DNA of 64,000 nt from Escherichia coli. Lineage in GTDB: Bacteria; Pseudomonadota; Gammaproteobacteria; Enterobacterales; Enterobacteriaceae. Positions within the stretch are counted from its first letter, which is position 1. Each line of letters begins with the position of its first letter. The notes under the pieces are model-generated. The model saw only the letters and a list, made by a program, of their open reading frames with translations, did no database searches and had not been told where the DNA came from. The position numbers were made by a program, and so were the translations under genes. This document shows positions 12,506 to 63,325 of this stretch, piece by piece. The stretch lies in assembly GCF_003991155.1 (NCBI RefSeq), contig NZ_CP031293.1; one strand, written 5' to 3'.

Positions 12506-12509
12506 CAGA

Positions 12510-14419: not shown

Positions 14420-14438
14420 ACTGAAGTCCTTGTACAAG

Positions 14439-16146: not shown

Positions 16147-16156
16147 GTTAAGACAA

Positions 16157-16359: not shown

Positions 16360-18348
16360 ATGTCATTAAAAGGATTGCGTTTTACGCTGAAAGTGGACGG
16401 CCAAAATGCGGACACCTTCGCCGTGGTAAATTTCTGGCTGATGCAGAATTTCTCGTTTCCATTTGTTATGGATGTAGATGTCGCCAGCAAGGAGTTTGGT
16501 ATTCAAGCAAATAGCTTGCTGGAAAAAAAAGCCACGCTGATCATCTGGCAGGGCCCCAAGGCGCTGCGTTATGTATCGGGTGTAATTGCCAGTTTCGGAA
16601 TGAAAGAAAACAATAACTGGCAGATGCAGTACCGCCTTCGTATCCAGCCACCTCTGTGGCGTAGCGGCCTACGCCAGAATTTCCGTATTTTTCAACAGCA
16701 AGATATTGCAACTATTTCAGCCACCTTACTGGATGAGAATGGTGTAACAGACTGGGAGCCATCCTTAAACAGTGAGCACCCTACTCGCGAGTTCTGCGTA
16801 CAGTATGGCGAAACGGACCTGGCATTTCTGTCACGGCTATGGGCAGAAGAAGGCATTTATTTTTATGATAAGTTAGCCCCGAACGGCCCGGATCAGAAAC
16901 TGACATTATGTGATGATGCAGCAGGTTTGTCGCCAATAGGAACCATTACCTTCAACCCAAATACCCGAACTGAAGCCGACAAGGAGTGCATCAATGCGTT
17001 TCATTACGAAGCTAATGTTCGTCCTTCATCAATACTGAGCAAAGACTACACCTTTAAAACCCCCGGCTGGGAAGGCAAATATATCCGACAGGGCGAGAAT
17101 CTGAACAACCAGTTTGAACAGTATGAAATCTATGACTACCCAGGACGTTTCAAGGATGAACAGCACGGGCAGGATTTTACCCGTTATCAGATGGATGGGT
17201 TGCGTAATGATGCGGAATTAGGCAGCGGTAGCAGCAATTCGCCGAGGCTATGGCCAGGAACCCGTTTCAAACTGGAGAACCATCCACAGAAAACCCTGAA
17301 CCGGGAATGGCAAGTGATCGGTAGCACACTAACGGGCGAACAGCCGCAGGCATTACATGGTAGCCAGGGTTACGGAACCTCGATGCATAACCAGTTTACT
17401 GTTATCCCGGCAGACCGTACCTGGCGTCCACAGCCAATGATGAAGCCAAAGGTAGATGGTCCACAAAGTGCCATTGTCACCGGTCCGGCTGGCGAGGAAA
17501 TTTTCTGCGATGAACATGGCCGGGTACGGGTGAAGTTTCACTGGGACAGAACCAAAACCAAAGATGAGAATAACTCCTGTTGGGTACGAGTGTCACAAGC
17601 CTGGGCTGGAGCCGGATTCGGCAACCTTGCCATTCCGCGTATAGACCAGGAAGTGATTGTCGATTTTCTTAACGGCGATCCCGACCAGCCCATCATCATG
17701 GGACGTACTTATCACCAGGATAACCGCTCTCCCGGTGGTCTGCCTGGCACCAAAACGCAGATGACTATCCGTTCAAAAACCTACAAAGGTGAGGGTTTTA
17801 ACGAACTACGTTTTGAGGATGCGACCAGTAACGAACAGCTTTATATGCACGCCCAGAAGGACATGGTGACAGAGGTACTGCATGACCGGACGACAACAGT
17901 GGATCACGACCATACCGAAACAGTGAAGAATAACCAGACGGTCACAGTAGTTGTTGGTCAGACGGTCAATGTGGGCAGTAAAAAAGAAGGCGGACACGAC
18001 CAGAAAGTGACGGTTGCCCACGACCAGACAGTCACGGTTCAGAACAACCAGACGCTGAATGTCACAGAAAAGCGTGAAAAAAATGTGGGTGGAGACCAGA
18101 AGGTCACTATCACTGGCGGCGATGATGAAACTGTCATGAAGTCGCAAAAGGTAACAGTAAAAGAAAACTATACGCTTGATGTCACCAAAGAAACGAAGAT
18201 TATTTCCGGCGAGTCGATTGAGCTTATCTGTGGCTCCTGCTCCCTGAAAATGGAAAAAGGTGGCAAGGTAACAATCTCCGGCTCAGAGTTTGATTTTACT
18301 GCTGGTGGCCTTGTGCATATCAACGGTAAAGACGTATTTATCAACTGA
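16360..18348 (+). CDS. vgrG: VgrG (TssI) spike protein, no C-terminal extension
   Basis: 662 aa; gp27/gp5-like; C-terminal beta-helical repeats (VTVAHDQTVTVQNNQTLNVTEKREKNVGGDQKVTITGGDDETV). Confidence 0.9.
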   Translation: MSLKGLRFTLKVDGQNADTFAVVNFWLMQNFSFPFVMDVDVASKEFGIQANSLLEKKATLIIWQGPKALRYVSGVIASFGMKENNNWQMQYRLRIQPPLWRSGLRQNFRIFQQQDIATISATLLDENGVTDWEPSLNSEHPTREFCVQYGETDLAFLSRLWAEEGIYFYDKLAPNGPDQKLTLCDDAAGLSPIGTITFNPNTRTEADKECINAFHYEANVRPSSILSKDYTFKTPGWEGKYIRQGENLNNQFEQYEIYDYPGRFKDEQHGQDFTRYQMDGLRNDAELGSGSSNSPRLWPGTRFKLENHPQKTLNREWQVIGSTLTGEQPQALHGSQGYGTSMHNQFTVIPADRTWRPQPMMKPKVDGPQSAIVTGPAGEEIFCDEHGRVRVKFHWDRTKTKDENNSCWVRVSQAWAGAGFGNLAIPRIDQEVIVDFLNGDPDQPIIMGRTYHQDNRSPGGLPGTKTQMTIRSKTYKGEGFNELRFEDATSNEQLYMHAQKDMVTEVLHDRTTTVDHDHTETVKNNQTVTVVVGQTVNVGSKKEGGHDQKVTVAHDQTVTVQNNQTLNVTEKREKNVGGDQKVTITGGDDETVMKSQKVTVKENYTLDVTKETKIISGESIELICGSCSLKMEKGGKVTISGSEFDFTAGGLVHINGKDVFIN

Positions 18349-18358
18349 GGCGTGAAAA

Positions 18359-19540
18359 ATGGAATTTCGTAATCTTACGCCGTTTTCAGTAATGCAATAT
18401 GCAATGGACGACAAACACAACGAGCGTCATTGTGTGGTCGCCATGAAAACCGGCTTCCGGCTGAAGCAGGACGAGAATGGTCAGTGGCAGGCACAACTGA
18501 TGGAAAACCCGCCATTGCCGCTCTGTGTGGAGGATGAGTATGCCGGGGAGATGAACACCTCTCCGGTACTGCGTGAAAGTGACCTTGCTCCTCTGAAACC
18601 CGCCTGTGACATCATCATCAACGGAACAGCTTATACGCCGGGAGGCGCTGCCGTGCCAGAAATGACGGCAGGCGTTCTTATGCTCTCATCGACAGGTGAG
18701 GTGCTGACAGACAAAAAACTGCGGATAACAGGCCAGCGTTTCTACAGGTACCAGCCGTTAATCCGCCAGTGGTATGAAACTGAACCGGAACCCTTCACCT
18801 CCCTGCCGCTTGACTACCGTTACGCTTTCGGCGGCGAATGCCGCGTGGAGGCAGGCAGCGAATATGCCAGCCGCGTCCCCGAAGAATATCGCCTGACCGA
18901 AGACCAGCGTCGGGAACACCCAAACCAGGAGAATCCACCACTGGCGCATATGGCCTGTCCGGTCAATCCACTCGGATTAGGCTATATGCAGCAGTGGTAT
19001 CTGCGGGCCTGTCAGGTTCAGCAGGTTGAAGCGCCCCGCATCATCGCCGTGGACAGCCCATTCACACTCAAACAGTTCACAGACTGTCTCGAAGGGAAAG
19101 CAGACTGGTTTGCCCCCGAATTTCAGCCAGCCGGTTTTGGCTGTATCGGGCGCGCCTGGCTGCCACGGTTATCTCTTGCTGGCACCTATGACCAGGAGTG
19201 GCTGGAAACACAACACCCCGACCTGCCGGATGATTTTGATTTTAACTACTGGAACTGCGCCCCGGATGACCAGCGCATCCCTTTTCCTCTGCCAGGACTG
19301 GGATTTGTACTGACGGGTTTTCGCCCGGAGGGCGATATCCGGTTCACCCTGCCCGCACATGAAGGACGCCTTCTGTTGCGCGCCATGAGCGGGCATCGAA
19401 TGCCATTACCCATGTTGCTGGATACGGTGGAAATCAATACTGACACCCTGACCGTGGCGCTGACCTGGCGCTTTCTGCTGCCCAACAGCACACCACCGGT
19501 GCGGGTACTGGAAGCCCGCTACAGAACAAGGAGCGCCTAA
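18359..19540 (+). CDS. DUF2169-family adaptor protein
   Basis: 393 aa between vgrG and PAAR-Rhs, the typical position for this adaptor family. Confidence 0.65.
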   Translation: MEFRNLTPFSVMQYAMDDKHNERHCVVAMKTGFRLKQDENGQWQAQLMENPPLPLCVEDEYAGEMNTSPVLRESDLAPLKPACDIIINGTAYTPGGAAVPEMTAGVLMLSSTGEVLTDKKLRITGQRFYRYQPLIRQWYETEPEPFTSLPLDYRYAFGGECRVEAGSEYASRVPEEYRLTEDQRREHPNQENPPLAHMACPVNPLGLGYMQQWYLRACQVQQVEAPRIIAVDSPFTLKQFTDCLEGKADWFAPEFQPAGFGCIGRAWLPRLSLAGTYDQEWLETQHPDLPDDFDFNYWNCAPDDQRIPFPLPGLGFVLTGFRPEGDIRFTLPAHEGRLLLRAMSGHRMPLPMLLDTVEINTDTLTVALTWRFLLPNSTPPVRVLEARYRTRSA

Positions 19541-19542
19541 GG

Positions 19543-22500
19543 ATGGCCGACAACTTTACAGCCCGTAAGCACGGACAATGGAAAGTCATCAGCACCAAAC
19601 CGGATGTCTGTAAAACACCACGCGGAGATTCCACACCGCCTGTCCCCTACCCTGTCACAGCCAATATGGCTGAAGCAGTGATGGTGGTGCAGTCGGTGAA
19701 GCTGAACGGCTGCCCGGCAGTGGTCCTAAACCAGAGCACCATCCCTCAGACAAAGGGCGATGCCGCAGGTGCGGCAAAAGGTGTCAGCAGCGGTACAGTG
19801 GGTGATGTCTGCGAGCCGCTGGACCACAGCGAGACAGTATTTTTTGGCGGCAAGCCGATACTGCGTCACCACGATGAGTTCTGGATGAACAGCCGTAACA
19901 CCATCGGCCTAATCGTGGGCCAGCCGCCACCGGCAGGCGTGCCTGCGGAAGAAGCGGACCCGCCGGATGAACCGGAGACGGAAGAAGAGGAAGAAAAGAG
20001 CAGCTGGCTGGACTGGGTGCAGACAGGACTGGATATTGCCGGGTTTGCACCGGGCTTTGGTTTTTTTGCCGATATGCTGAATGCGGGTATCAGCCTGGCG
20101 CGTGGTAATTATGCTGACGCGTTTATGTCTGTGGCGGCCTCACTTCCGGGGATAGGTGATGCGGCAGCGGCTGGCAGGATGGCAGTTAAAGGACGAAAAG
20201 CAGCAAAGGCGGCTAAAGAAGCCGCCGAACGAGCCGCAAAGAAAAAGCTGGAGAAGGAGGCGGCAATGCGCTCCCGTGCGCTGAGAAAAGCCCAGAAGAA
20301 AGCGGCAGCTAAAAAGAAAGGGGGTATCGTTAAGGGGAAAGCGAAAAATAACAAAGGCAAAGGTAAGGGTGCGGAAAGCAGTGATTGTACCAAACCCGGC
20401 GAACCCGTGGACGCCGGAACCGGCGACTTTCTCCAGCACTTCAGCGTTCTTTCCCTTCCCGGCTCACTTCCTCTCACGCTTTCCCGGTTTTACCGTTCTC
20501 AGGCACAACATGGCGGCATCTTTGGTCCCAAATGGACCGATGAATGGTCCGTATCCCTGAAGGTACACACTGACGGCAACCTGCACTTCACTGACGGTGA
20601 AGGGGTGGAACTGTACTACCCCATTCCGCAGGACGGCATTTTTGAGGGTGCAGCGAACTCCCGCCAGGCACACTACCGGCTGACGGGCGACATGAGCGGA
20701 GAACTGTCGTTGTCCGACCGCCGCACACAGCAGACACAGATTTTTTCTCAGGCAGGCACAGGTACTTATTTGCTGTCTGCCCTTCATGACAATTACGGCA
20801 ACCGGATTGATTTTATCCGCACGGACGGCCTGCTGACAGAAATCCGCCACAGCGACGGCTACACGCTCGCGCTTGCCTGGCTACAGCAGCAACTAATGAG
20901 CATTGACCTGGCAACACCGCGGCGTCAGCGCCTTGTCACCTGTCAGTACGATGATAATGGTTATCTGGCAGAGTGCGATACTTTCCAGTTTTCTCATCTG
21001 TGGCATGAATACACGACTGAAGGGTTTATGACCCGCTGGCGGGATACGGATAAAACCTGCGTGGATATCCGTTACGACCCGCAGGGGCGCGCCATCAGCA
21101 CCCTGTCAACCGAAGGCTATTACGACGACCGTTTTATCTATAACGATGAAGAGCACTGTACCACCTACGTGGATGCAGAAGGCGGCGAAACCCGTTACTG
21201 GTATAACGAAGACGGCCTGGTCACCCACAGCACCGACCCGCTGGGCCGTGAAGAGATTACAGTATGGGAAAACACGCAACTTCAGTCGCGCACCGACGCG
21301 CTGGGGCGTAAAACAGCGTATGAATATAACGATGAGGGCGATATCTGGCATGTTGCCCTGCCGGGCGGCTACAGCCTCTATTACGACTACAACGACGCCG
21401 GGCAGTTAACCCGCCTGACCCTGCCGGGCGACCAGGTATGGCTGTGGGACTACGACGATAAGGGCAGCATGGTCTGCCTGACCGACCCGCAGGGCCGGAA
21501 ACAGCAGTTCAGCTACAGCCAACAGGGTGATTTACTGGCGCGGATTATGCCGGGCGGAGCCACCTGGCGCTGGAGCCATGACGCCCTGCACCAGGTGCGC
21601 GAGACCACTGCGCCGGACGGCGGCGTCACGCAGACTGAACAGGATATGCTGGGCCGCCTGCTGAGTGTGAAAGACCCGCTGGGCTTCACCACGCAGTTCC
21701 GCCACAGCAAAACCCACGCTGGGCCGCTGGGCAGCGTGGAAGAAATTAACCGCCCGGATGGCGTGCGGGAACTGATGCGCCAGAACAGTGAAAAGCTGCC
21801 GGAGAGCTTCACCGATGGCGAAGGCAAAACCACCCGCTACGAATATGGTGCATTTGACCTGTTAACGGCAGTTATCCGCCCGGATGGTGAACGGCTGGAG
21901 TGCCGCTACGACAAGCTGACCCGCCTGACCGAAATCACCAACGCGGAAGGTGAGCACTACCGTCTGGAATATGATAAAGCCGGGCAGCTTATCGCGGAAA
22001 CCGACTTCACCGGGCGCACACTGACCTACAGCTACGATGCGGCAGGCCGCTGTACCCGCACCACCTTCCCGGACGGCACTCACCTGAACCGCCGCTACAA
22101 CGTGACCGACCAGGTAACGGACGAGGAAGTCACCCAGGGCGACAGCAACCGTACCCTGAGCGCCACCACCTTCCTCTATGACACGCTGTGCCGCCTGGTG
22201 GAGGCGAAAAACGATGATGCCATCGTTACGTATGAATATGACAGTGCCAGCAGGGTTGTGGCCGAGACAATCAACGGCAGGCGTACAGAATACAGTTACG
22301 ACAATAATCTCGACACAGTTTCACAGCGCACCACCGCAGGCATCACAGAGCACTTCACCCGCAACCTGATGGGCTATCTGACCACCTGGCAGATAGCCGA
22401 CCATGCCCCGCTGACATTTGAACATGACCTGCGCGGCATGGAAACGTCCCGACGCAGCGAGGCCGGGTTTTACCAGACGCTGGCTTACACCCGCACAGGA

Positions 22501-35582: not shown

Positions 35583-35676
35583 GGTGGTCATTCTGGTGGT
35601 CTTGACAATCTCGATTTTTTGTTTTAGCTTACCAATCAGCCAGTTAATGGCTACGGCGATCCCAGTCAGAGGAGCC
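35583..35676 (+). repeat. Island-end repeat copy 1, ending in the tRNA-Asn 3'-terminal 15-mer
   Basis: ~94 bp near-identical to 48837..48930 and to the reverse complement of 63231..63325; ends CCAGTCAGAGGAGCC, matching the tRNA-Asn acceptor/T-arm 3' end. Confidence 0.8.
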
Positions 35677-35682
35677 CAATTT

Positions 35683-37887: not shown

Positions 37888-38008
37888 ATTACCAAAAAGA
37901 TTGAAAGCTCACCATTTTGTCGAAATTGGCAGCAAACAAACAAAAAAATGCATTTCACCCTTTGACATCACCATGCACTGCCATTAATATGCGCCCCGTT
38001 CACACGAT

Positions 38009-38084
38009 TCCTCTGTAGTTCAGTCGGTAGAACGGCGGACTGTTAATCCGTATGTCACTGGTTCGAGTCCAGTCAGAGGAGCCA
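38009..38084 (+). tRNA. asnV: tRNA-Asn (anticodon GTT)
   Basis: 76 nt TCCTCTGTAGTTCAGTCGGTAGAACGGCGGACTGTTAATCCGTATGTCACTGGTTCGAGTCCAGTCAGAGGAGCCA; cloverleaf consistent, anticodon GTT at 38042..38044; gene symbol inferred from position next to nac. Confidence 0.9.
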
Positions 38085-38250
38085 AATTTTAGTCTTGAGA
38101 CATCTCTATAAGTCTCAGGATAGTTAAAAAACAAGAACTTATCTTTACCCGGTTGTCTCGCAAGAGGCTGCTGGGTTTCTTGACATCCATAGTTTTTAGG
38201 GGCCTAATCAGGGGCCTCACGGTTCGGTGAGCAAACGGAGCCCCCACGCT

Positions 38251-39513
38251 ATGGCATTAACAGACACCGCTATTCGCAAGACTAAACCCTCTGACAAACC
38301 CTTCAAAATGACGGACAGTTCTGGACTGTACCTGTTGATCAAACCTAACGGCTCAAAACTCTGGTATATGAAGTACCGCATCGACGGCAAAGAGAAGAAA
38401 CTGGCCTTTGGCCCCTACCCGGAGATCTCCCTGTTGCAGGCTCGCCGCCTGCGCGAAACAGCACGCAATAACATTCATGCAGGCGTCGATCCGGCTGCGG
38501 TGAAGCAAACCGAGAAACAGAAGAGGAAAAACGGGCAGACGTTCAGCCAGATCGCCATCAACTGGCATAGCGAGCATAAACGCTGGTCTGAGCATTACGC
38601 GAAAACGGTTATGCGCAGGCTGGAAATGTACGTTTTCCCGGATATCGGGGATCGCCTTATCGAGGAGATCGAAACGGAGGATTTGTTATTCACGTTGCGC
38701 AAGGTAGAGAGTAAAGGCTTTCTGGAAATCACCGCGCGGCTGAAAAACTACGTCACCGATATCATGCACTACGCGATGAAAAAGAAACTGCTCAAAGCGA
38801 ACCCGGCGCTGTATCTGGACGGTGAGTTTGCCGCGCCAGAAACCAGTCACTACCCGGCCCTGTCGCTGGACAAATTGCCTGAGCTTTTAACCCGGACGGA
38901 TAGCTACTGCGGCAGGCTGCTGACAAAATACGCGCTTAAGCTGTCGCTGATTTTTTTTGTGCGCTCCAGCGAACTACGCTTTGCGCGCTGGAGTGAGATC
39001 GACTGGCAGCAGAAGTTATGGATAATCCCGGAAGAGCGCGAACAGATCGAAAACGTGCGCTTCTCTTACCGGGGGTCGAAAATGAAAATCCAGCACATTG
39101 TGCCGCTGTCGGATCAGGCGATTGCGATACTGAAACAGATCGAGGCCCTCTCCGGGCATCTGGCCTTTATTTTTCCCGGCGAATACGACCAGGACAAGTG
39201 CATGAGCGACAACACCGTCAACAAGGCGCTGCGCGTGATGGGTTACGACACCAAAAAGGATATCTGCGGGCATGGCTTCCGGGCAATGGCCTGTAGTGCG
39301 CTGAGCGAATCGGGATTATGGAGCAAAGAAGCCATTGAAAAGCAGATGAGCCACCAGGAAAGAAACAGCGTCCGTGCTGCCTATATTCACAAGGCTGAAT
39401 ATCTGGAGGAACGGATCGAGATGATGCAGTGGTGGTCAGATTATCTTGATGCAAACAGTGACGGGTATGTCTCGGCTTACCAGTATGCCCGCCGCCTAAA
39501 ACAGGCGTCGTAA
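38251..39513 (+). CDS. int: P4-like tyrosine integrase
   Basis: ORF 38227..39513; probable start MALTDTAIRKTKP at 38251; phage-integrase family features; lies directly 3' of the tRNA. Confidence 0.85.
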   Translation: MALTDTAIRKTKPSDKPFKMTDSSGLYLLIKPNGSKLWYMKYRIDGKEKKLAFGPYPEISLLQARRLRETARNNIHAGVDPAAVKQTEKQKRKNGQTFSQIAINWHSEHKRWSEHYAKTVMRRLEMYVFPDIGDRLIEEIETEDLLFTLRKVESKGFLEITARLKNYVTDIMHYAMKKKLLKANPALYLDGEFAAPETSHYPALSLDKLPELLTRTDSYCGRLLTKYALKLSLIFFVRSSELRFARWSEIDWQQKLWIIPEEREQIENVRFSYRGSKMKIQHIVPLSDQAIAILKQIEALSGHLAFIFPGEYDQDKCMSDNTVNKALRVMGYDTKKDICGHGFRAMACSALSESGLWSKEAIEKQMSHQERNSVRAAYIHKAEYLEERIEMMQWWSDYLDANSDGYVSAYQYARRLKQAS

Positions 39514-39636
39514 GTTAACAAAGCATCAGAGGGGGAAAAGGTATATTCCCCCTTTGTGCGTTTCAAATGTCGATGCTGACTGTAGCTTTTAAACTAAATT
39601 ACTGGATAAAAAGTAGCTTTTAAGCTACTATCTTTT

Positions 39637-39954
39637 ATGAAAACGATAAAGACCTACATAACTGCCGACGGGCGAGATCTGTATGCAGAGTTTTTTAAAG
39701 GGTTACGCGACCCCATCGCGAAGGCAAAGATCGCTTCCCGGATCAACCGGATGGCTTCGGACAATTTTGGCGACCATAAGCCCTGCCGGGAAGGTGTCTG
39801 GGAACTCAGGATAGATCAAGGGGCTGGGTATCGGGTTTATTACAGCCTGGTGGATGGAGAAGTCGTCCTGTTGATTCTGGCTGGCGACAAGCGTACGCAG
39901 GATGCAGATATAGATGAGGCTATTCGCTGCCTCAAAGACTATTTGAAGAGGTGA
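39637..39954 (+). CDS. RelE/ParE-superfamily toxin, HigB-like
   Basis: 105 aa; 3 nt before the antitoxin-like gene; toxin-first order typical of HigBA. Confidence 0.6.
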   Translation: MKTIKTYITADGRDLYAEFFKGLRDPIAKAKIASRINRMASDNFGDHKPCREGVWELRIDQGAGYRVYYSLVDGEVVLLILAGDKRTQDADIDEAIRCLKDYLKR

Positions 39955-39957
39955 TGT

Positions 39958-40266
39958 ATGGCGAAAGAACGTTTATATGATGATGTCATGGTGGAAGCGC
40001 TCCGGGAAGATCCTGCTTTTGCTCAGGCCTATCTGCATCAGGCATTTCTGGATATGGATGAAGATGGCGGTCAGGAAGCTTTTTTACTCGCGTTACGCCA
40101 TGTTGTTGAAGCGCGGGGAGGAATGGCGACGGTTGCCCAGAAAGCCGGTGTATCGCGTGAATCACTGTACCGCACGCTCTCCCCGACCGGCAACCCGACA
40201 CTGAAAACACTCCGCAGCGTCGTCCACGCCGCAGGTTTTCAGTTCTCTGCGCTGGCAAGTGCCTGA
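39958..40266 (+). CDS. HigA-like antitoxin (HTH)
   Basis: 102 aa; sequence resembles addiction-module antidote proteins (GVSRESLYRTLSPTGNPTLKTL helix-turn-helix region). Confidence 0.6.
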   Translation: MAKERLYDDVMVEALREDPAFAQAYLHQAFLDMDEDGGQEAFLLALRHVVEARGGMATVAQKAGVSRESLYRTLSPTGNPTLKTLRSVVHAAGFQFSALASA

Positions 40267-40388
40267 GTAGTTTTACATTTTGCAGCGATAATATAAATTG
40301 TAAATCATAATCCCTCCGTTGCTCTGTTCTGAGCAACGGATTACTTTGCATATTATCTGCTTTGCTAATCCATCAATTTTTAATTACC

Positions 40389-40682
40389 TTACATGGAAGC
40401 AACATACTCCATTAAATTATCTAATAAAAAATCAACCTTACTTATACCTTCATTTACATTATCGGCATAGATAAGTTCTACGAGCTTCATCCAACTTAAA
40501 TTGGAACGTACATTGTATTGTAAAAGGAGCCACTCTCTAAATCCCTCTAACATTTTACCGTCAAAGGAAAAATCCATCCCTAGTATAAAAGCCACAGTGT
40601 TTTCATAGTTATTTTCAAGTAGATACATATCGATATGCTTCTTAAAAAAAACAATTTTTTTTAGGAGGATATTTTTATTCAT
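40389..40682 (-). CDS. Putative immunity protein for orphan rhs toxin
   Basis: 97 aa, start 3 nt after the toxin stop, AT-rich. Confidence 0.5.
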   Translation of the reverse strand: MNKNILLKKIVFFKKHIDMYLLENNYENTVAFILGMDFSFDGKMLEGFREWLLLQYNVRSNLSWMKLVELIYADNVNEGISKVDFLLDNLMEYVASM

Positions 40683-40684
40683 AA

Positions 40685-41400
40685 TTAAAATCCAAAATTG
40701 ATTGCATCAGGATATTGCCATAACTCTTTATATTCTTGTAATGGTAAACCGTCTGAGCCAGTAAAGGCATCATAAACCCGACCATCTTTTACTACAACGT
40801 CGTGATATGCCCAACCGGGATTCGTGCCTCTGTATTTACCTAATGAAGGAGCTCCGAAATCAGGTCTAATTCTTGCAATATCACCACCGATTTTCTTTTG
40901 TACCCACAATGCAAAATCTTCACAACCATTCCAGTTCTCAGAATTTTTAATATCCGCAGCCTTCCATACACAATCAGCGTTAAGGCCTAATGGATCAATC
41001 CAATTTAACGGATCTTTGACGTAACTGTATGGATTAATACCTCCCAACACCCCGGTTGGATCTGCCGAAATATACTGCGCAGTATCAGGATCATAGTACC
41101 GGAACCGGTTATAGTACAGTCCTGATTCGGCATCTTCATACTGCCCCGGAAAACGCAGGCGGCAGTCAGGTGCATCATCCCTGTTCCTGCCTTCTTCCCG
41201 GCCCCAGAGCTGTTGTTTTCCCCGCCAGACAATGGTGCCGCCCTCGGTCAGCAGTTCCTGGACACGGCCGACCGTATCCGTCACCGCGTAATGCAACAAG
41301 CCTTTCTCATAACGCGCCAGCGGTGTAAAACTTCCCGGTTCGTATATCCAGCGGATGGCGTTTTCATCATCTGGCTTGCCGTCCTGGCTGACCGGAATTT
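40685..41400 (-). CDS. Orphan rhs C-terminal cassette with Cys/His/Asp-containing toxin tip
   Basis: ORF 40685..41299, rhs-core similarity extends to ~41400; DPLGL motif then a unique ~95 aa C-terminus. Confidence 0.7.
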
Positions 41401-41442
41401 CTTGGTTAGATGACCGTCAGTTAAATGGATATTATCATTCCA

Positions 41443-41784
41443 TTAAAAATCGGAATGATCCATATATTCTATATGCTCATCAGAAAGTCCATCTGGATAT
41501 AACTCTCTTGGATAATCACTATCTAAAATTGCTAGGAAGTTATTTATAGTATTTTCCAATGCCTCATCTACTGTTTTTCCCCAGCCAATAGCACCTTCGG
41601 GACAATCATCAAATTTCCGTTTAATCATTACATTTGTAATCCCCATGTAACTCCCATCCTGAGACTCTCGTATTTTTATTTTTACTTTTGCGCTAGGGAT
41701 AACACCAAACATCCAAATTACAAACTCGGCTTCAACTTTCTCTACTTTAGATACACTGCGTATTTTCATTTGATGCCAGCCCAT
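41443..41784 (-). CDS. Putative immunity protein for Rhs2 toxin
   Basis: ATG start MGWHQMKIRSV at 41784 with AGAGGA RBS, 11 nt after the Rhs2 stop. Confidence 0.5.
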   Translation of the reverse strand: MGWHQMKIRSVSKVEKVEAEFVIWMFGVIPSAKVKIKIRESQDGSYMGITNVMIKRKFDDCPEGAIGWGKTVDEALENTINNFLAILDSDYPRELYPDGLSDEHIEYMDHSDF

Positions 41785-41794
41785 ATCTTTTCCT

Positions 41795-44700
41795 CTATAA
41801 ACGACCAAAAGAGACAATTTCCCCTGTATCTACCGCAACATCAATATATCTTCCGTTCTTTCTATATCTCCACACATTTTCAGTATAACCAGAAACTTTG
41901 GTTGGTTTTATTCTTCTCAAGTTCTCAGAAAAAACCTTAGCTTTATTTAGATATTGCTCTACCGTTTCTGCACCAACTTCACGACCATGTTTTCTGAAGT
42001 GCTCCAGTAATGACTCTGCCGGAGTATCCCAACTTCCTTTACTCCATAGTTTTTTACAATTTACTTCTTGCAGGAATGCAAATAATGCCGATAAACCTAA
42101 AGGGTCAATATAACTAAATGGGTTCTGTACATATGAATATGGATTTAATCCCCCAAGTAACCCAATGGGATCTGCCGAAATATACTGCGCCGTATCAGGA
42201 TCATAGTACCTGAACCGGTTATAGTACAGTCCTGATTCCGTATCTTCGTACTGCCCCGGAAAACGCAGGCGGCAGTCAGGCGCATCATCCTTGTTTCTGC
42301 CTTCTTCCCGGCCCCAAAGTTGCTGTTTTCCCCGCCAGACAATCGTGCCGTCTTCGGTCAGCAACTCCTGGACACGACCGACCGTATCCGTCACCGCGTA
42401 ATGCAGCAAGCCTTTCTCATAACGTGCCAGCGGTGTAAAACTTCCCGGTTCATATATCCAGCGAATGGCATTTTCATATTCTGGTTTGCCATCAGTACCA
42501 ACAGGAATTTCTTCGGTTAACTGATCGCCATTCCAGTGGAAATCCATTCCGGACTTATCACGGTTGGTACACCGTTTGCTGATGCGCCTGCCAAACGGGT
42601 CGTATTTATACTCCCAGCGTTCCCCCTCCGGCGTTTCAAGCCCGGTAAGCTGACTTCTGGCATCCCAGCGATAGCGCCATTCGAGCGGACGATAGCCGCC
42701 TTTATCGACCAGTTTCTCCACCAGGCGACCATTAGCATCGTACGTCCAGGTAATATTGTGCTCATTCACCACCCGGACAAATTTTCCCTCTTCCGGCTTT
42801 CCTGTGTCCGGGTTGATGCGGTGTGTCTGATGCCGCCAGCCTTTGTGCTCTCTGGAAACAACTCTTCCATGCCGCAACTGCTGGTGTGTCTCGCTTTCCA
42901 GCACCTCATTTACCCATGTCTGGCGGCGGGCAATATTCAGGTTTTTGTCATAAGTGAACAGTTCCTCACACAGCGGAAACTCCCGGGAATCGCCCGTCCA
43001 GGTGGCATGGCTTACCTGGTCGTTAACCGTCATATTGTTGAAGGCTGATCCCCGCAGCGAGTCTGATATTACCGTCAGGTTGTACGCCTTGTCATACAGC
43101 CACTGGCGCTCCAGGCTTTTGTTCCGTTCGTACGGCCCGGCCTGGTGGTCCCCGGCATTCTGCTTCGCTGGCATCCCTGTGCGCGTGTATGCCAGCGTCT
43201 GGTAAAACCCGGCCTCGCTCCGCCTGGACGTTTCCAGGCCGCGCAGGTCGTGCTCAAATGTCAGCGGGGCATGGTCCGCTATCTGCCAGGATGCCAGATG
43301 CCCCATCAGGTTTCGGGTAAAGCGTTCTGTGATACCTGCTGTGGTGCGCTGTGTGACCGTATCCAGGTCAGGGTCGTAACGGTATTCTGTGCGCCTGCCG
43401 TTCAGCGTTTCGGCAACAATCTGGTTTGCATCGTTATATTCAAATGTAACGGTGGCATCGTCATTCTTCGCTTCCACCAGACGACGCTGCGTGTCGTAAC
43501 GAAATGTGGTGACACTCAGAGTTCGGTCACTGTTGCCCTGTGTGACTTCCTCGTCCGTCACCTGGTCATTCACGTTGTAGCGGCGGTTAAGGTGAGTGCC
43601 GTCCGGGAAGCTGGTGCGAATACAACGCCCGACGGCATCGTAGGTGTAGTTCAGCGTGCGTCCGGTGAAGTCTGTTTCTGCTACAAGCTGCCCGGCTTTA
43701 TCATATTTAAGACGGTAGCGCTCGCCTTCGGCGTTGGTAATTTCGGTCAGGCGGGTCAGTTTATCGTAGCGACACGCCAGCCGCTCGCCGTCAGGACGCA
43801 CCAGAGCCGTGAGCAGATCGAATGCACCGTATTCGTAACGGGTGGTTTTGCCCTCGCCATCGGTAAAGCTTTCCGGTAGCTTTTCGCTGTTCTGGCGCAT
43901 CAGTTCCCGCACGCCGTCCGGGCGCTGGATTTCTTCCACGCAGCCCTGTGGCCCGGCGTGGATTTTGCTGTGACGAAACTGCGTGGTGAAGCCAAGTGGG
44001 TCTTTCACACTTAACAGTCGGCCCAGCATATCCTGTTCGGTCTGCGTGATGCCGCCGTCTGGCGCAACAGTCTCGCGCACCTGATGCAGGGCGTCATGAC
44101 TCCAGCACCAGGTGGCCCCGCCCGGCAGAATCCGTGCAAGCAAATCACCCTGTTCACTGTAGCTGAACTGCTGTTTCCGGCCCTGAGGGTCGATCAGGCT
44201 GATTATGCTGCCCCGATCATCATAGACCCATTGCCACGCCTGATTATCAGTTGTCGACAGCCGGGTTAACTGACCGGTATCATTATACTCGTAGAACAGG
44301 CCATAGCCGCCCGGCAGGGCAACCTGGATAACCTCACCTTCCCGGTTATAGCGGTACGCCGTGGTACGCCCCAGCGCATCGGTGCGTGACTGAAGCCGGG
44401 CATTATTCCAGACGGTAATTTCTTCCCGCCCCAGCGGATCGATACAGCGGGTGACCAGGCCGTCCTCGTTATACCAGTAACGGGTTTCGCCCCCTTCTGC
44501 ATCCAGGTAGGTGGTGCATTTTTCATCATCGTTATAGATAAAGCGGTCATCGAAGTAGCCTTCCGTTGACAGTGTGCTGACAGCGCGCCCCTGCGGATCA
44601 TAGCGGATATCCACACAGGTTTTGTCCGTATCCCGCCAGCGGGTCATAAAGCCTTCTGATGTGTACTCATGCCATAAATGCGAGAACTGGAAGGTATCGC

Positions 44701-45985
44701 ATTCTGCCATAAAACCATTGTCATCATACTGGCAGGTCACAAGACGCTGACGCTGCGGCGTTGCCAGGTCAATGCTCATCAGCTGAGCCTGTTGCCAGGC
44801 AAGGGCGAGCATATAGCCATCGCTGTGACGGATTTCTGTCAGCAGACCATCAGTGCGGATAAAATCAATCCGGTTGCCATAATTATCGAAGACAGCGGAC
44901 AACCGCCAGACGCCATTGCCTGCCGGGGAAAAGAGCTGTGTCTGCTGCGAACGGCGATCGAAAACGCTCACGCCATCGCGCAGGCTTCCCGTCAGCCGGT
45001 AGTACGCCTGGCGTGAGTTCACTGCACCGCGAAAGATACCGTCCTGCGGCAGGCGGTAATACAGTACAACGCCTTCACTGTCGGTAAAATGCAGCCGGTT
45101 ACCCTGTATCGTCAGCGACGCTGACCACTCATCGGTCCATTTCGGGCCGAAAATCCCGGTCCCCCTGGCCTGTGAGCGGTAAAAACGCGAGAGCGTCAGC
45201 GGCAGGGAACCCGGCAGCGAAAGCACGCTGAAATGCTGGAGAAAATCGCCGGTGCCAATATCCACAGGCTCACCGGGTTTGGTGCACAACTGAGCACCAA
45301 CACATTTACTCTGATCACCAGTTCCCTCGGTTTCACCTTTAATATTTGCGCCATCCTGGCCTTCGGGTATGACATCATCCGCCAACTTTTCTGCGTCACT
45401 GACAACATCGTCTGCTTTGTTTACCTTCAGCAGATCGGCGGTGAATTTCCCCGCCGCTGCTTCTTCTCGTGCCAGTTTACTGGCAGTCCGCATCGCTCTA
45501 AGACCCACGAACCCGCCTCGGGCCAGACCATATCCTCCCAGCGCCAGCGAGCCATGGTCATAAATCATGCCGCCAATTTCCTGGTTCCTGTTGCTCATTT
45601 CCAGACGGTACATGTCCAGATTGAAATCTCCCGCATGCTCCCGGAGATCTCCGCCCATGTTGTACATATCCTCGCCAATATCATCCATGCCCATCGCAGA
45701 AAGCATGGCGCCGTTCATCTGCATTTCTCCGGCATACTGCATGGTGGCCCCCTGGCCTATCATCGTCGCCATATCCGGGAACTGGTTCCAGAATGCTTTG
45801 GCAGCACCAATAGCCAAATCAAGCTGGACTGCCGAAGCTTCAATTTTCGCCCGACTTTCATCCATCTGGATCATCAACATCATGTCCCAGATACTTTGCT
45901 CTTCTTTTGTTTCTGGCTCTGGCGCAGGGTCAGCTTCGCTGGCGGAAATAGCGGCTTCAGGGGGCTGACCGATAATTAAACCCGT
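41795..45985 (-). CDS. rhs: Rhs repeat effector 2, 5'-truncated by the IS3-family element
   Basis: ORF 41795..45883; frame stays open upstream to the IS end (~45985) and encodes ...GLIIGQPPEAAISASEADPAPEPETKEE, matching the linker after the PAAR domain of Rhs1; YD repeats; DPIGLLGGLNPYSYVQNPFSYIDPLGL then a unique C-terminus. Confidence 0.85.
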   Translation of the reverse strand, partial: TGLIIGQPPEAAISASEADPAPEPETKEEQSIWDMMLMIQMDESRAKIEASAVQLDLAIGAAKAFWNQFPDMATMIGQGATMQYAGEMQMNGAMLSAMGMDDIGEDMYNMGGDLREHAGDFNLDMYRLEMSNRNQEIGGMIYDHGSLALGGYGLARGGFVGLRAMRTASKLAREEAAAGKFTADLLKVNKADDVVSDAEKLADDVIPEGQDGANIKGETEGTGDQSKCVGAQLCTKPGEPVDIGTGDFLQHFSVLSLPGSLPLTLSRFYRSQARGTGIFGPKWTDEWSASLTIQGNRLHFTDSEGVVLYYRLPQDGIFRGAVNSRQAYYRLTGSLRDGVSVFDRRSQQTQLFSPAGNGVWRLSAVFDNYGNRIDFIRTDGLLTEIRHSDGYMLALAWQQAQLMSIDLATPQRQRLVTCQYDDNGFMAECDTFQFSHLWHEYTSEGFMTRWRDTDKTCVDIRYDPQGRAVSTLSTEGYFDDRFIYNDDEKCTTYLDAEGGETRYWYNEDGLVTRCIDPLGREEITVWNNARLQSRTDALGRTTAYRYNREGEVIQVALPGGYGLFYEYNDTGQLTRLSTTDNQAWQWVYDDRGSIISLIDPQGRKQQFSYSEQGDLLARILPGGATWCWSHDALHQVRETVAPDGGITQTEQDMLGRLLSVKDPLGFTTQFRHSKIHAGPQGCVEEIQRPDGVRELMRQNSEKLPESFTDGEGKTTRYEYGAFDLLTALVRPDGERLACRYDKLTRLTEITNAEGERYRLKYDKAGQLVAETDFTGRTLNYTYDAVGRCIRTSFPDGTHLNRRYNVNDQVTDEEVTQGNSDRTLSVTTFRYDTQRRLVEAKNDDATVTFEYNDANQIVAETLNGRRTEYRYDPDLDTVTQRTTAGITERFTRNLMGHLASWQIADHAPLTFEHDLRGLETSRRSEAGFYQTLAYTRTGMPAKQNAGDHQAGPYERNKSLERQWLYDKAYNLTVISDSLRGSAFNNMTVNDQVSHATWTGDSREFPLCEELFTYDKNLNIARRQTWVNEVLESETHQQLRHGRVVSREHKGWRHQTHRINPDTGKPEEGKFVRVVNEHNITWTYDANGRLVEKLVDKGGYRPLEWRYRWDARSQLTGLETPEGERWEYKYDPFGRRISKRCTNRDKSGMDFHWNGDQLTEEIPVGTDGKPEYENAIRWIYEPGSFTPLARYEKGLLHYAVTDTVGRVQELLTEDGTIVWRGKQQLWGREEGRNKDDAPDCRLRFPGQYEDTESGLYYNRFRYYDPDTAQYISADPIGLLGGLNPYSYVQNPFSYIDPLGLSALFAFLQEVNCKKLWSKGSWDTPAESLLEHFRKHGREVGAETVEQYLNKAKVFSENLRRIKPTKVSGYTENVWRYRKNGRYIDVAVDTGEIVSFGRL

Positions 45986-45992: not shown

Positions 45993-47244
<1,252 letters not shown>

Positions 47245-47493
47245 CCACTACACATAGCAAGGGGAAAAGGTGGATGGGAGCCAACTAAGTTACAAAATTT
47301 TGATCCTGAATTTGGCAGAAAACTACAAGCAATAAATAACGCGTTAAGGAATGGACGGATAGAATTTGCTCATGCACAGGTTTTTTTACGCAATGATGGC
47401 TCTGTTAATGCTGCAGTAGGCATTGGTAGCGGAATACAGTGGAATACCTGGTAATAATAGTATGTGTATATAACGAATAAAGGAGTCCATTTT

Positions 47494-48426
47494 ATGGCAG
47501 CAAGCAAAACAAAAAACAGACTGGAAAAAATGCTTCCTCGCGTTTATAGCTGGGCACAGAGCGGCAGCCAATCAGTAACCGCCCCTGAGTTTAACTATAT
47601 GGAACAATATATTAATGGTCAATCTGAACTTTTCATGGCATTAATTCATTTATATGGACTTGGCATGAGTGAAGCTGCATTAAGCTTACTGGAAGCCAAA
47701 CAGTCTATGGCTTCTTCTGTTATCCATATGAGTTATGGATTCTCTCGAATGCTTCATTCTGATGGCATTAATATATTGAGTTTAAAAGAAAGCAAGGCAA
47801 CTATTACTTCAGGCTTGGATTTCGTCACACATAGTATGCTTGGAGCAATTGCGCTGGGTATGCCCGCTCTGACGAAAAAATTTCACCAGATTGTTTTTAC
47901 TGCTCTTGAGAAAGGGTATGGCATTGTAAATGCGCATGAAGATCCTGGCCCAGAAACTTTACGCTATGCTGCTATGGGACTTTCCATCATTAATGACTGG
48001 CTACAGATCCCCCTGGATTTAGATAAGCTGGGACTGCCACGCGATCCGGCCTGGGGGCTTCTGGTCAAACACTGGAATAACCCTGATCCCGTTAAATTAC
48101 AATCGGTTCTGTATGATGCCTGTGATATCCATATAGAACGTATCGCGTTAACAGAACGTGAAGTTTATACCGGTAACTTTGAATTTGGCTCTCCGTTTGA
48201 AGCCGTTCACCCAACAGAGATTCTGGCGGTATTGCGCCTGAGAGACATGCTGAATCTGCCCAATCCGACATTAGACCATCCGCTGATGAACACACCTTAT
48301 GCCCAAATCACCACCACTCCGGGCCAGGTCACTCAGCCGGACAGTCTGCTAGAAACCTTTCTGGCTAAGGCCCGTGAACGGGATCCAGAGGTCATGGCCG
48401 AATGGGATCGGGTTCAGGTGGATTAA
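47494..48426 (+). CDS. Hypothetical protein (possible immunity or adaptor)
   Basis: ORF 47464..48426; probable start MAASKTKNRLEK at 47494 with AAAGGAG RBS; no family recognised. Confidence 0.5.
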   Translation: MAASKTKNRLEKMLPRVYSWAQSGSQSVTAPEFNYMEQYINGQSELFMALIHLYGLGMSEAALSLLEAKQSMASSVIHMSYGFSRMLHSDGINILSLKESKATITSGLDFVTHSMLGAIALGMPALTKKFHQIVFTALEKGYGIVNAHEDPGPETLRYAAMGLSIINDWLQIPLDLDKLGLPRDPAWGLLVKHWNNPDPVKLQSVLYDACDIHIERIALTEREVYTGNFEFGSPFEAVHPTEILAVLRLRDMLNLPNPTLDHPLMNTPYAQITTTPGQVTQPDSLLETFLAKARERDPEVMAEWDRVQVD

Positions 48427-48836: not shown

Positions 48837-48930
48837 GTGGTCATTCTGGTGGTCTTGACAAACTCGATTTTTTGTTTTAGCTTATCAATCAGCCTGTTAA
48901 AGGCTAAGGCGATCCCAGTCAGAGGAGCAA
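48837..48930 (+). repeat. Island-end repeat copy 2 with tRNA-Asn 3'-end 14-mer (probable attR of the asnV island)
   Basis: Near-identical to 35583..35676; ends CCAGTCAGAGGAGC (one mismatch to the tRNA 3' end after that). Confidence 0.8.
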
Positions 48931-63230: not shown

Positions 63231-63325
63231 TGGCTCCTCTGACTGGGATCGCCGTAGCCTTTAACAGGCTGATTGATAAGCTAAAACAAAAAATCGAGTT
63301 TGTCAAGACCACCAGACTGACCACC
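63231..63325 (-). repeat. Island-end repeat copy 3 with truncated tRNA-Asn 3' end (pseudo-tRNA / attR)
   Basis: Reverse complement matches copies 1 and 2; 63231..63246 is the tRNA 3' 16-mer; it is followed on the minus strand by the same flank that follows asnV (aattttagt[c/t]ttgagacatctc). Confidence 0.8.

Follow-up and report, generated by a model that had tools for sequence, protein, structure and literature searches.

What is the small gene pair that stands directly behind the integrase of an asn-tRNA island in Escherichia coli, and does it serve the island that carries it? The window analysed here is a stretch of 64 kb, and a sequence-only reading of it had described the pair as a HigB-like/HigA-like toxin-antitoxin (TA) module that probably stabilises the island by addiction. 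Based on profile searches, predicted structures and the comparison of homologous loci, we consider it likely that the pair is a promiscuous type II TA cassette of the Gp49 / HI1419-HI1420 type, with a HigB1-like mRNase, an XRE antitoxin, autorepression and a leaderless toxin mRNA. Stabilisation of the island is a less convincing part of the earlier description.

Layout of the locus

The pair and the ends of the island are arranged as follows.

38009-38084, + strand: tRNA-Asn (GTT), the integration site (ARAGORN; Rfam tRNA, 72.6 bits)
38251-39513, + strand: P4-type tyrosine integrase (Pfam Arm-DNA-bind_3, Phage_int_M and Phage_integrase; tyrosine-type recombinase in L001)
39637-39954, + strand: toxin ORF, ATG start, 105 aa, intact
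39958-40266, + strand: antitoxin ORF, ATG start, 102 aa, intact
48915-48930, + strand: attR-like copy of the tRNA-Asn 3' end (CCAGTCAGAGGAGCAA), with one mismatch

The order, sizes and spacing of the two ORFs, as first described, agree with the ORF coordinates and with the sequence itself: the toxin comes first, its stop codon TGA occupies 39952-39954, and a TGT separates it from the antitoxin ATG at 39958, a gap of 3 nt. The pair does follow the island integrase directly, with 123 nt between the end of the integrase ORF at 39513 and the toxin ORF; PGAP places the integrase start at 38251 and the longest ORF begins at a GTG at 38227. The last 16 nt of the tRNA gene (38069-38084) form the attL core, and they recur as exact attR copies that bound simpler islands in A30, E148 and A22. 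In the window the attR-like copy is the probable right boundary of a composite island of ~10.8 kb. A second copy of the toxin or the antitoxin gene is absent from the 64-kb window, and an Rfam search of 37900-41000 returned no family other than tRNA. In the megablast comparison the 'second place' of each genome lies outside both L001 and the window.

Are the two ORFs genuine genes? Against the 94%-identical copy in strain A30, the toxin gene shows 12 synonymous and 2 non-synonymous codons and the antitoxin gene 13 and 0, and both are under strong purifying selection. Because of this synonymous excess, and because both products give significant matches to curated HMMs, the ORFs are more than chance.

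Family membership and naming

The toxin matches TIGR02683 with 113.4 bits (cut-off 62.85; model positions 2-95 of 95) and Pfam Gp49 (PF05973) with 27.3 bits, a modest margin over the cut-off of 23.9; PF05973 is also precomputed for most toxin homologues. The antitoxin reaches 61.7 bits with TIGR02684 (cut-off 53.7) and 55.1 bits with PF21716 (cut-off 27). With both proteins above curated cut-offs, a RelE fold in the one and an XRE-type helix-turn-helix (HTH) in the other, the original TA call is borne out. TIGR02683 and TIGR02684 are paired NCBIfam models (upstrm_HI1419, 'addiction module killer', and dnstrm_HI1420, 'antidote') of a family defined bioinformatically ('hypoth_equivalog'). The arrangement that they describe, a killer immediately 5' of an antidote on the same strand, is present in the window and is the same at all homologous loci inspected, where the genes are never separated. 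These matches place the pair in the Gp49 / HI1419-HI1420 branch; it resembles the TIGR02683/TIGR02684 pair in gene order, adjacency, protein sizes (~100 aa each) and PGAP names, and we found no difference between them.

The label HigB/HigA-like applies loosely, to a toxin-first operon with a RelE-fold toxin and an HTH antitoxin, and fails for the canonical models. The HMM check proposed with it returned Gp49, of the RelE/ParE superfamily, together with TIGR02683 and TIGR02684; neither protein has a Pfam or NCBIfam match at E <= 0.01 to canonical HigB (PF05015, PF09907), HigB-like or HigA models. The toxin families of canonical HigBA systems (PF05015 for HigB of Rts1 / Proteus, PF09907 for HigB of E. 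coli K-12, PF06296 for HigB2 of V. cholerae) are thus unmatched here. What such systems share with the window pair is the toxin-first operon, the RelE-fold toxin, the HTH antitoxin and autoregulation through promoter palindromes, the last predicted here. Members of the Gp49 / HI1419-HI1420 branch are nonetheless often named HigB in the literature (PMC11980606, PMC5906591).

The pair is already known by annotation, and its sequence is that of an ordinary two-gene TA cassette. The toxin is identical to WP_021550960.1 and the antitoxin to WP_016248851.1, and in 33 complete E. coli genomes the identical proteins already bear the names toxin and antidote in RefSeq/PGAP. The TIGR02683/TIGR02684 pair is probably the COG3657/COG3636 pair (RelE + HTH) of Makarova et al. 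2009. COG3657(RelE)-COG3636(HTH) has figured among the listed TA systems from 2009 onwards (PMC2701414). A literature search for an experimentally characterised and confirmed member of TIGR02683/TIGR02684 found none. DhiTA was rejected as a match: DhiA (NF048016) covers the HTH half of the antitoxin only and scores 34.8 bits where its cut-off is 200, and DhiT is said to have no relation to known toxins. Two further candidates for a characterised relative were also set aside: ToxP/AntitoxP of Coxiella belongs to the V. cholerae HigB2 family, and ToxAvapA of NTHi is described only as a higBA homologue, without a link to TIGR02683/TIGR02684. The Y. pestis orthologue (80% identical) may be the reportedly toxic 'HigB2' of Goulard et al. 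2010; the only grounds for equating it with HigB2/YPO1087 are where it lies in the genome (~1.2 Mb) and the missing annotation of the toxin in KIM.

A close parallel is offered by Tad-Ata (Paracoccus pAMI2; N15 gp49-gp48; SXT s045-s044), a TA system of DUF891/COG4679 and COG5606 that is likewise toxin-first, has an Xre-type HTH antitoxin and resides on plasmids, prophages and ICEs. Its toxin group gp49/DUF891 is that of Pfam Gp49, a likeness by description and not by sequence comparison, and it differs in being a separate COG pair in Makarova et al. (PMC2701414). Tad-Ata systems are reported to stabilise a heterologous plasmid (PMC2701414; PMC2654960).

Toxin and antitoxin

The AF2 model of the toxin (pLDDT 94) has its strands and helices in the RelE order and ends in a long C-terminal helix. 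Its best Foldseek match is M. tuberculosis HigB1 (7nbu; E = 4e-5, TM 0.78, 24% identity); the Foldseek probability is 1.0 for HigB1, which ranks first, and for HigB2, RelE, RelK and YoeB; ParE ranks lower. V. cholerae HigB2 is the second-best fold match, and HigB of P. vulgaris reaches a TM of ~0.50 only. At the sequence level the likeness to HigB1 is marginal: the profile alignment covers toxin residues 10-104 with E = 0.017, and a PDB search with the single toxin sequence gave nothing useful (E >= 0.14).

Five residues, E56, R58, R66, K85 and Q88, are invariant in 44 toxin homologues. By profile, E66, R68 and R77 of HigB1 align with E56, R58 and R66, and HigB1 K58 aligns with K48, which is conserved in most of the 44 homologues, not all. 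The HMM register puts HigB1 K95 on A82 and not on K85, so the match of K85 and Q88 needs a 3-residue shift, with which toxin K85-x-x-Q88 would mirror HigB1 K95-x-x-Q98. For HigB1 N73 and F93 no toxin counterpart is assignable in the alignment. HigB1 (PDB 7nbu, 7awk) is a ribosome-dependent mRNase (PMC9098466), and Gp49-family toxins are described as ribosome-dependent mRNases encoded in toxin-first order (PMC11980606). By analogy, the window toxin is most likely a ribosome-dependent mRNA endonuclease of the RelE/ParE superfamily, Gp49 / HI1419-type.

The analogy has limits. Like the window toxin, HigB1 (HigB-TAC, Rv1955) has the long C-terminal helix and is toxin-first; it is part of a TAC with a SecB-like chaperone, whereas the window pair consists of two genes and the chaperone gene is absent. 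The antitoxin of HigB1 is of another family than the PF21716 protein found here, and the HigB1 beta-4/alpha-3 loop is longer than in the toxin model.

The antitoxin model (AF2, pLDDT 93) starts with two helices and has an XRE helix-turn-helix at its C-terminal end. In the fold search the hits to the C-terminal half, over ~55-62 residues, are XRE HTH repressors and HipB antitoxins. For the N-terminal helices fold and profile searches matched no solved structure, and a PDB search with the single antitoxin sequence returned nothing; the profile search of the antitoxin brought up designed helical repeats only, which we take as spurious. In VcHigA2, too, a C-terminal HTH is joined to an N-terminal region, there a neutralising one (PMC5416850).

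Predicted promoter, operators and terminators

The signals around the two genes are listed below.

39527-39556, + strand: hairpin after the integrase stop (inverted repeat I2; -22.7 kcal/mol, z = -5.3)
39582-39597, no strand: operator-like site O1 (GTAGCTTTTAAACTAA), direct repeat D2; the palindrome is copied here imperfectly, 31 bp away from O2
39603-39608, + strand: predicted -35, TGGATA (script scan; TGGACA in A30)
39612-39629, no strand: main operator O2, a perfect palindrome AGTAGCTT-TT-AAGCTACT in the promoter spacer, overlapping the -10
39626-39631, + strand: predicted -10, TACTAT, with 5 nt between its end and the toxin ATG
39946-39951, + strand: antitoxin Shine-Dalgarno AAGAGG within AAGAGGTGA, read from the sequence, 6 nt before the ATG at 39958
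40315-40340, + strand: G+C-rich hairpin of 10 pairs (6 G-C) with a 6-nt loop, followed by TTACTTTG

The first hairpin is likely the int terminator, separating int from the TA promoter. That promoter, TGGATA-17 nt-TACTAT, has 8/12 matches to the sigma-70 consensus, just short of the 9/12 threshold of a generic promoter scan, which did not call it. Within the 64-kb window the O1/O2 palindrome occurs at the TA promoter only; O1 is present in A30, and in Proteus, too, two sites stand about as far apart. E. coli, Yokenella, Y. pestis and Proteus all keep the GTAGC-N6-GCTAC core 7-9 nt ahead of the toxin ATG, in flanks that are unrelated, and the operator of this type in Y. pestis shows paired changes. 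A distant branch carries a different palindrome, TCGTTTATAAACGA, in the operator's place. We propose that the antitoxin (or the TA complex) probably binds the two palindromic operators and that the operon represses itself, since one operator overlaps the promoter -10. A palindromic operator inside a predicted sigma-70 promoter that adjoins the toxin ATG is the one feature of the cassette that is new, and only mildly so.

How is the toxin translated? In homologues 5-7 nt separate the end of a TACWAT or GATAAT from the toxin ATG. By a strict definition, a promoter abuts the start codon at 16/31 family loci and at 4/409 control ORFs; a toxin Shine-Dalgarno is found at 1/31 family loci, against 26% of controls, and the window toxin start has none. 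Because the -10 ends so close to the ATG and a Shine-Dalgarno is missing, the toxin mRNA is predicted to have no leader or almost none. The antitoxin Shine-Dalgarno is coded by the toxin's last codons, and six enterobacterial loci share it in the form A(A/C)GAGGT(A/G)A. We see about an even chance that the whole HI1419/HI1420-type family shares this design, a promoter fused to the toxin start, a leaderless toxin mRNA and an antitoxin with a strong internal Shine-Dalgarno.

The G+C-rich hairpin that had been noted behind the pair is real, and its coordinates move slightly, from 40317-40342 to 40315-40340. In a 56-nt context it has -18.8 kcal/mol compared with -5.7 +/- 1.9 for shuffles (z = -6.8), and it occurs a single time in the window. 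It is the probable intrinsic terminator of the TA operon but no part of the conserved cassette, as the sequence resembles A30 only up to 40280.

A model for the cassette

Taken with the operator and promoter layout, the predicted structures suggest how the cassette may work. The most likely action of the RelE-fold toxin, as HigB1 of M. tuberculosis suggests by analogy, is to enter the A site of the ribosome and cut mRNA there. The two N-terminal helices of the antitoxin would cover the toxin, while its C-terminal XRE helix-turn-helix would bind the two GTAGC-N6-GCTAC operators and so repress the operon. With the promoter abutting the toxin start codon, translation of the toxin from a leaderless mRNA is predicted to be inefficient, and the strong Shine-Dalgarno in the last toxin codons would help to keep antitoxin in excess although the toxin gene comes first. 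We envisage a self-preserving module of ~0.7 kb that came to rest in the asn-tRNA island, with the integrase on one side and the cargo on the other; any stabilisation of the island would then be a by-product of the addictive behaviour of the cassette and not an island-specific function.

What are the implications of such a cassette? Beyond correct annotation its importance is small, as TA pairs of this family are widespread and this one is routine. Given that we found no confirmed, characterised prototype, thousands of annotations would gain an anchor from one characterised member. A concrete model for the toxin:antitoxin ratio in the toxin-first operons of this family follows from the conserved layout of promoter, operator and predicted leaderless start: if true, the leaderless design would be a built-in translational way to keep the antitoxin in excess, and toxin synthesis could respond to conditions that favour leaderless translation.

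Alternative explanations and the island

Two other explanations concern the activity of the pair itself. The toxin might be a ParE-like gyrase poison and not an mRNase, given that RelE and ParE folds are alike, that ParE2 and ParDE structures are among the fold-search matches and that the toxin shows a weak resemblance to ParE_toxin (PF05016; 18.9 bits, E = 0.0023). That score lies under the 23-bit cut-off, however, and the ParE structures, ranked under HigB1, HigB2, RelE and RelK, reach a TM of 0.44-0.52 compared with 0.78 for HigB1; moreover, the invariant Arg and Glu residues and, with the 3-residue shift, Lys and Gln coincide with mRNA-contacting residues of HigB1, whose alpha-3 the long C-terminal helix resembles. 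We give gyrase poisoning hardly any chance. It is nearly as improbable that the pair does not work as a TA system any more and is a non-toxic relic or simply a small transcription-factor operon. Many chromosomal TA loci decay, and membership of the Gp49 family is no guarantee of toxicity: M. tuberculosis HigB2 and HigB3, placed among the GP49-domain toxins (PMC5906591), are non-toxic (PMC9098466). Here, on the other hand, both ORFs are intact and strongly selected, the catalytic-type residues are invariant, the operator, promoter and Shine-Dalgarno are conserved, and the identical toxin is found on 412 contigs and the identical antitoxin on 867.

Was the cassette selected to stabilise the island, in that cells losing it would be killed or arrested by the longer-lived toxin? 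The pair lies inside the island, 123 nt past the integrase; A30 has this int-TA left end too, joined to different cargo; and all 33 genomes with a ~100%-identical TA pair (33/33) also have a ~100%-identical integrase. There are precedents in mosAT, which stabilises SXT, one of the ICEs and islands for which TA systems have this effect (PMC2654960), in HipAB of Shewanella, which is reported to stabilise the island CGI48 (PMC8978831), and in the TA pairs, some of Gp49 type, that adjoin the recombination module of Tn3 transposons (PMC7157771). However, deletion of s044-s045 in SXT, which is similar to tad-ata of pAMI2, did not raise the loss of the ICE (PMC2654960), and related asn-tRNA islands with ~90%-identical integrases are mostly without the TA pair, which makes the cassette optional. 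Nor is integrase adjacency a property of the family, a notion that we discarded: close homologues stand solo in the core chromosome (Yokenella, Proteus, Photorhabdus), on plasmids or in prophages, and a related integrase lies within 3 kb at 1/74 viral-contig loci, as probed by tblastn with a single P4-type integrase that would miss unrelated recombinases. The island in the window is itself a decayed composite, with Rhs modules and an IS3, an imperfect attR-like repeat, and neither excision genes nor the three HTH genes found in related islands. Because the HTH genes are missing, the IS3 is present and attR is imperfect, excision is doubtful and there may be little to stabilise. An island-stabilising addiction module, as the sequence-only reading had it, is therefore not well supported by this context of promiscuous homologues, sister islands mostly devoid of the pair and a decayed host; we regard selection for stabilisation as possible but doubtful, and a TA pair beside an integrase should not be assumed to be an island-stabilising device. 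Still less probable, in our judgement, is a role in abortive infection, in which a phage cue would destabilise or sequester the antitoxin and the freed mRNase would stop translation before phage progeny appear. Abortive infection is mediated by one HigB toxin, from a TAC module of E. coli, that has been placed in the Gp49 family (PMC11980606); the variable distal cargo of the asn-tRNA island family is typical of defence and competition islands, and relatives of the pair adjoin type I R-M genes, cluster with MNT/HepT and AbiEii or are carried by prophages. On the other side, PADLOC (PADLOC-DB v2) gives no credible match, with none for the toxin and only a weak one to mad1 for the antitoxin (E = 0.009, 14.2 bits, no stretch passing alone); the adjoining cargo encodes Rhs toxin and immunity functions, for interbacterial competition and not phage defence; and the SecB-like chaperone gene of TAC is absent.

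A parallel to the setting of the cassette is offered by the Tn3-family TA pairs (PMC7157771). These are likewise toxin-first with a Gp49-type toxin and an HTH antitoxin, and stand beside a site-specific recombinase on a mobile element; the recombinase there is a resolvase and here the tyrosine integrase of a tRNA island, and the antitoxin there is HTH_37. Recombinase adjacency is not conserved across the homologues of the window pair. Homologues are found on 926 plasmid records, in one of them within a par/rep maintenance region.

Identity of the toxin–antitoxin pair

The sequence-only reading placed a HigB-like/HigA-like pair directly after the island integrase. ORF coordinates and the sequence bear out a two-ORF, toxin-first arrangement in which 3 nt separate the toxin TGA (39952-39954) from the antitoxin ATG (39958). 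The hairpin proposed to follow the pair also stands, placed at 40315-40340; it folds strongly compared with shuffles (-18.8 kcal/mol; z = -6.8) and is found once in the whole window.

Features of the locus
38009-38084, tRNA-Asn, preceding the integrase
end at 39513, P4-type tyrosine integrase, 5' of the pair (Arm-DNA-bind_3, Phage_int_M and Phage_integrase domains)
39527-39556, strong hairpin after the integrase stop (-22.7 kcal/mol)
39582-39597, upstream operator-like site, GTAGCTTTTAAACTAA
39612-39629, perfect palindrome, putative operator, AGTAGCTT-TT-AAGCTACT
39637-39954, plus, toxin ORF, 105 aa
39958-40266, plus, antitoxin ORF, 102 aa
40315-40340, hairpin after the antitoxin, 10 pairs, 6-nt loop, tail TTACTTTG

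In HMM searches both proteins pass the cut-offs of TA families: the toxin those of TIGR02683 (upstrm_HI1419; 113.4 bits, cut-off 62.85) and Pfam Gp49 PF05973 (27.3, cut-off 23.9), failing ParE_toxin PF05016 (18.9, cut-off 23), and the antitoxin those of TIGR02684 (61.7, cut-off 53.7) and PF21716 (55.1, cut-off 27). Neither protein matches the canonical HigB or HigA models. Judged by sequence, the pair belongs to the TIGR02683/TIGR02684 (Gp49 / HI1419-HI1420) family; it would work in a HigBA-like manner in the broad sense and lies outside the canonical HigB/HigA sequence families. By annotation it is already known. RefSeq names the identical proteins 'type II toxin-antitoxin system RelE/ParE family toxin' (WP_021550960.1) and 'addiction module antidote protein' (WP_016248851.1), and PHROGs matches are phrog_3445 'toxin' and phrog_4268 'transcriptional repressor'; a PADLOC search of both proteins gave no credible match. 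The TIGR02683/TIGR02684 family is probably what has been called the COG3657-COG3636 pair. A COG3657(RelE)-COG3636(HTH) pair was already in a 2009 TA listing (PMC2701414).

A large protein collection has the exact toxin sequence on 412 contigs and the exact antitoxin sequence on 867. Among 5,426 complete E. coli genomes, 34 carry the TA stretch; identity is ≥99% in 33 of them and 94% in the remaining one, strain A30. Between the window and A30 the changed codons are 12 synonymous and 2 non-synonymous in the toxin, 13 and 0 in the antitoxin and 89 and 19 in the integrase, a synonymous excess indicating that toxin and antitoxin genes are both kept as coding sequences.

Predicted activity of the two proteins

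AlphaFold models are confident (pLDDT 94 for the toxin, 93 for the antitoxin). The best structural match of the toxin model is HigB1, the M. tuberculosis HigB-TAC toxin and a ribosome-dependent mRNase, in complex with the ribosome and cspA mRNA (7nbu; E = 4e-5, TM 0.78); like the model, HigB1 ends in a long C-terminal helix. V. cholerae HigB2, RelK, RelE and YoeB come next, ahead of the ParE structures. In HigB1, a role in catalysis or mRNA contact has been proposed for K58, E66, R68, N73, R77, F93, K95, Q98 and K99 (PMC9098466). A toxin-family profile built from 44 homologues aligned residues 10-104 with HigB1 in a weak match (E = 0.017), which sets K48 opposite K58, and E56, R58 and R66, invariant across the family, opposite E66, R68 and R77. 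The invariant K85-x-x-Q88 has the spacing of HigB1 K95-x-x-Q98, with the HMM register off by three residues, and we infer that the two motifs are counterparts. From the HigB1-like fold and matching residues, the toxin most likely acts as a ribosome-dependent endonuclease on mRNA. Toxicity is not universal in this group: HigB2 and HigB3 of M. tuberculosis, placed among GP49-domain toxins (PMC5906591), are non-toxic (PMC9098466).

The antitoxin carries a five-helix XRE-type HTH at residues ~38-101 of its model, matching ClgR, DdrO, C.AhdI and HipB with probability ~1.0 over 55-62 residues. Its two N-terminal helices (residues 2-34) had no match in the structure search; comparison with other toxin-first antitoxins makes them the likely toxin-binding part.

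A predicted promoter abutting the toxin start codon

The hairpin after the integrase stop suggests that the pair is probably driven by its own promoter. The two related sites upstream of the toxin lie 31 bp apart, and the 64-kb window has no others of this kind. In E. coli, Yokenella, Y. pestis and Proteus, GTAGC-N6-GCTAC ends 7-9 nt 5' of the toxin ATG, while the flanking sequences are unrelated between genera. The Y. pestis version, GTAGCC-TAAA-GGCTAC, preserves symmetry through paired changes; Proteus has two copies and Photorhabdus one imperfect copy. Homologues at 50-60% identity have TCGTTTATAAACGA at the same position instead, the pattern expected with operator-repressor co-evolution. 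An Rfam match over this region, to Aggregatibacter sRNA 82 (39576-39637, minus; 25.5 bits against a gathering cut-off of 51.4, E = 0.68), falls below threshold and is almost certainly chance, produced by the palindromes.

The right palindrome arm overlaps a -10-like hexamer (TACTAT, TACAAT or GATAAT), with a TTGACA-like -35 located 16-18 nt 5' of it. Only 5-7 nt separate the end of the -10-like hexamer from the toxin ATG, and a Shine-Dalgarno is absent. A strict promoter (each hexamer ≥4/6 matches, spacer 16-18 nt, -10 end 4-9 nt before the start) abuts the start codon in 16 of 31 family upstream regions and in 4 of 409 other ORF starts (≥80 aa) from the same loci (binomial p ~2e-24, the family loci being phylogenetically non-independent). 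A Shine-Dalgarno is present in one of the 31, compared with 26% of the other starts. Before the antitoxin start, the last toxin codons form a conserved A(A/C)GAGGT(A/G)A. The predicted window promoter itself is weak (TGGATA-17-TACTAT, 8/12 matches), and a generic promoter scan made no call for it.

Taken together, the promoter abutting the ATG, the conserved antitoxin Shine-Dalgarno and the operator within the promoter suggest a model in which the toxin mRNA would be leaderless from its predicted start and poorly translated, the antitoxin would be well translated, and the pair would repress itself through the operator. Our literature search found no description of this layout. This predicted architecture, kept across the family, is the sole element meriting follow-up.

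Does the pair stabilize the island?

The sequence-only reading took the pair for an addiction module stabilizing the island. This is possible, and the pair would also penalize deletions removing it, but such a role is not specifically indicated, and the island here looks poorly mobile. The integrase occurs at ≥99% identity in 34 E. coli genomes and at 90-95% in 38 further ones, among which A30 alone carries the pair. In strains E148 and A22 the related islands run from the integrase through three HTH genes and a second integrase-like gene to variable cargo; their 16-nt att repeats are exact, and they lack the pair. A30 has this layout with the pair inserted directly after the integrase. The window island lacks the HTH genes, a set that may include excision functions; in it the pair is followed by orphan and full-length Rhs modules, IS3 and a 320-aa ORF, and the sole att copy downstream (48915-48930) carries a single mismatch.

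Toxin and antitoxin genes stay together in every context, in highly variable surroundings. These surroundings, and the sister islands lacking the pair, show that the cassette is an optional, promiscuous insert.

Surroundings of homologous pairs
Yokenella: solitary, with glyS on one side and an ABC-F ATPase gene on the other
Proteus: solitary, flanked by a LysE-family gene and the acpS-pdxJ-recO cluster
Photorhabdus: close to IS remnants
P. aeruginosa plasmid: flanked by partition genes and repA
Rouxiella plasmid: adjoining a type I R-M system
Limnohabitans: within a TA/Abi cluster
Various prophages: prophage-borne
Y. pestis (L006-L008, around 5001-5638): in a P4-like element, its integrase split by an IS21-family element

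Homologues appear in 926 plasmid records, and a related integrase lies within 3 kb in only 1 of 74 viral-contig loci. The Y. pestis element also carries AlpA, Ash, primase and Integrase_1, and its TA orthologue is 80% identical; this may be 'HigB2' (YPO1087), reportedly found toxic by Goulard et al. in 2010.

Literature precedent on island stabilization cuts both ways. mosAT stabilizes SXT, but SXT loss was unchanged after deletion of s044-s045, SXT genes that resemble pAMI2 tad-ata (PMC2654960). Gp49-type pairs adjoin resolvase genes in Tn3 transposons (PMC7157771), and HigB of an E. coli TAC module, assigned to the Gp49 family by a review, mediates abortive infection (PMC11980606).

Other features of the region

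The related asn-tRNA islands span 6-10 kb (L002, in A30, 10563-20315; L014, 8857-15400; L015, 8857-15159), with exact 16-nt repeats at their borders and an Integrase_1-like second integrase gene. Their distal cargo differs and may be defence genes: A30 has one hypothetical protein of 1210 aa, A22 has DUF4747 together with a hypothetical, and E148 has two hypotheticals.

Rhs region of the window (40389-45883)
40389-40682, minus, small ORF, no Pfam match
40685-41299, minus, orphan Rhs C-terminal fragment, RHS core motif only
41443-41817, minus, small ORF, no Pfam match
41795-45883, minus, full-length Rhs protein, 1362 aa

Both small ORFs are positioned like immunity genes. The 320-aa ORF (47464-48426, no Pfam match) lies between IS3 (46031-47252) and the attR-like repeat and is missing at the matching place in AR Bank #0349, which is 99.99% identical to the window only as far as the IS3 end (47252) and diverges beyond.

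Gene order at 35600-64000 is cbl-nac-asnV-[island]-yeeJ-yeeL-shiA-amn-yeeN, against yeeJ...yeeN-asnW-yeeO-asnU-cbl-nac-asnV-ldtA in A30, an order shared with K-12; the two orders differ as if a block had been translocated between identical asn-tRNA genes or att sites. An isolated 16-nt tRNA-Asn 3'-end copy with one mismatch (35662-35677) lies just 5' of cbl, the usual place of asnU, with a T6SS PAAR/Rhs island upstream, and an exact copy (63231-63246, minus) marks the end of similarity to the A30 asnW region. Each resembles an att scar left by a further island at one of the other asn-tRNA genes.
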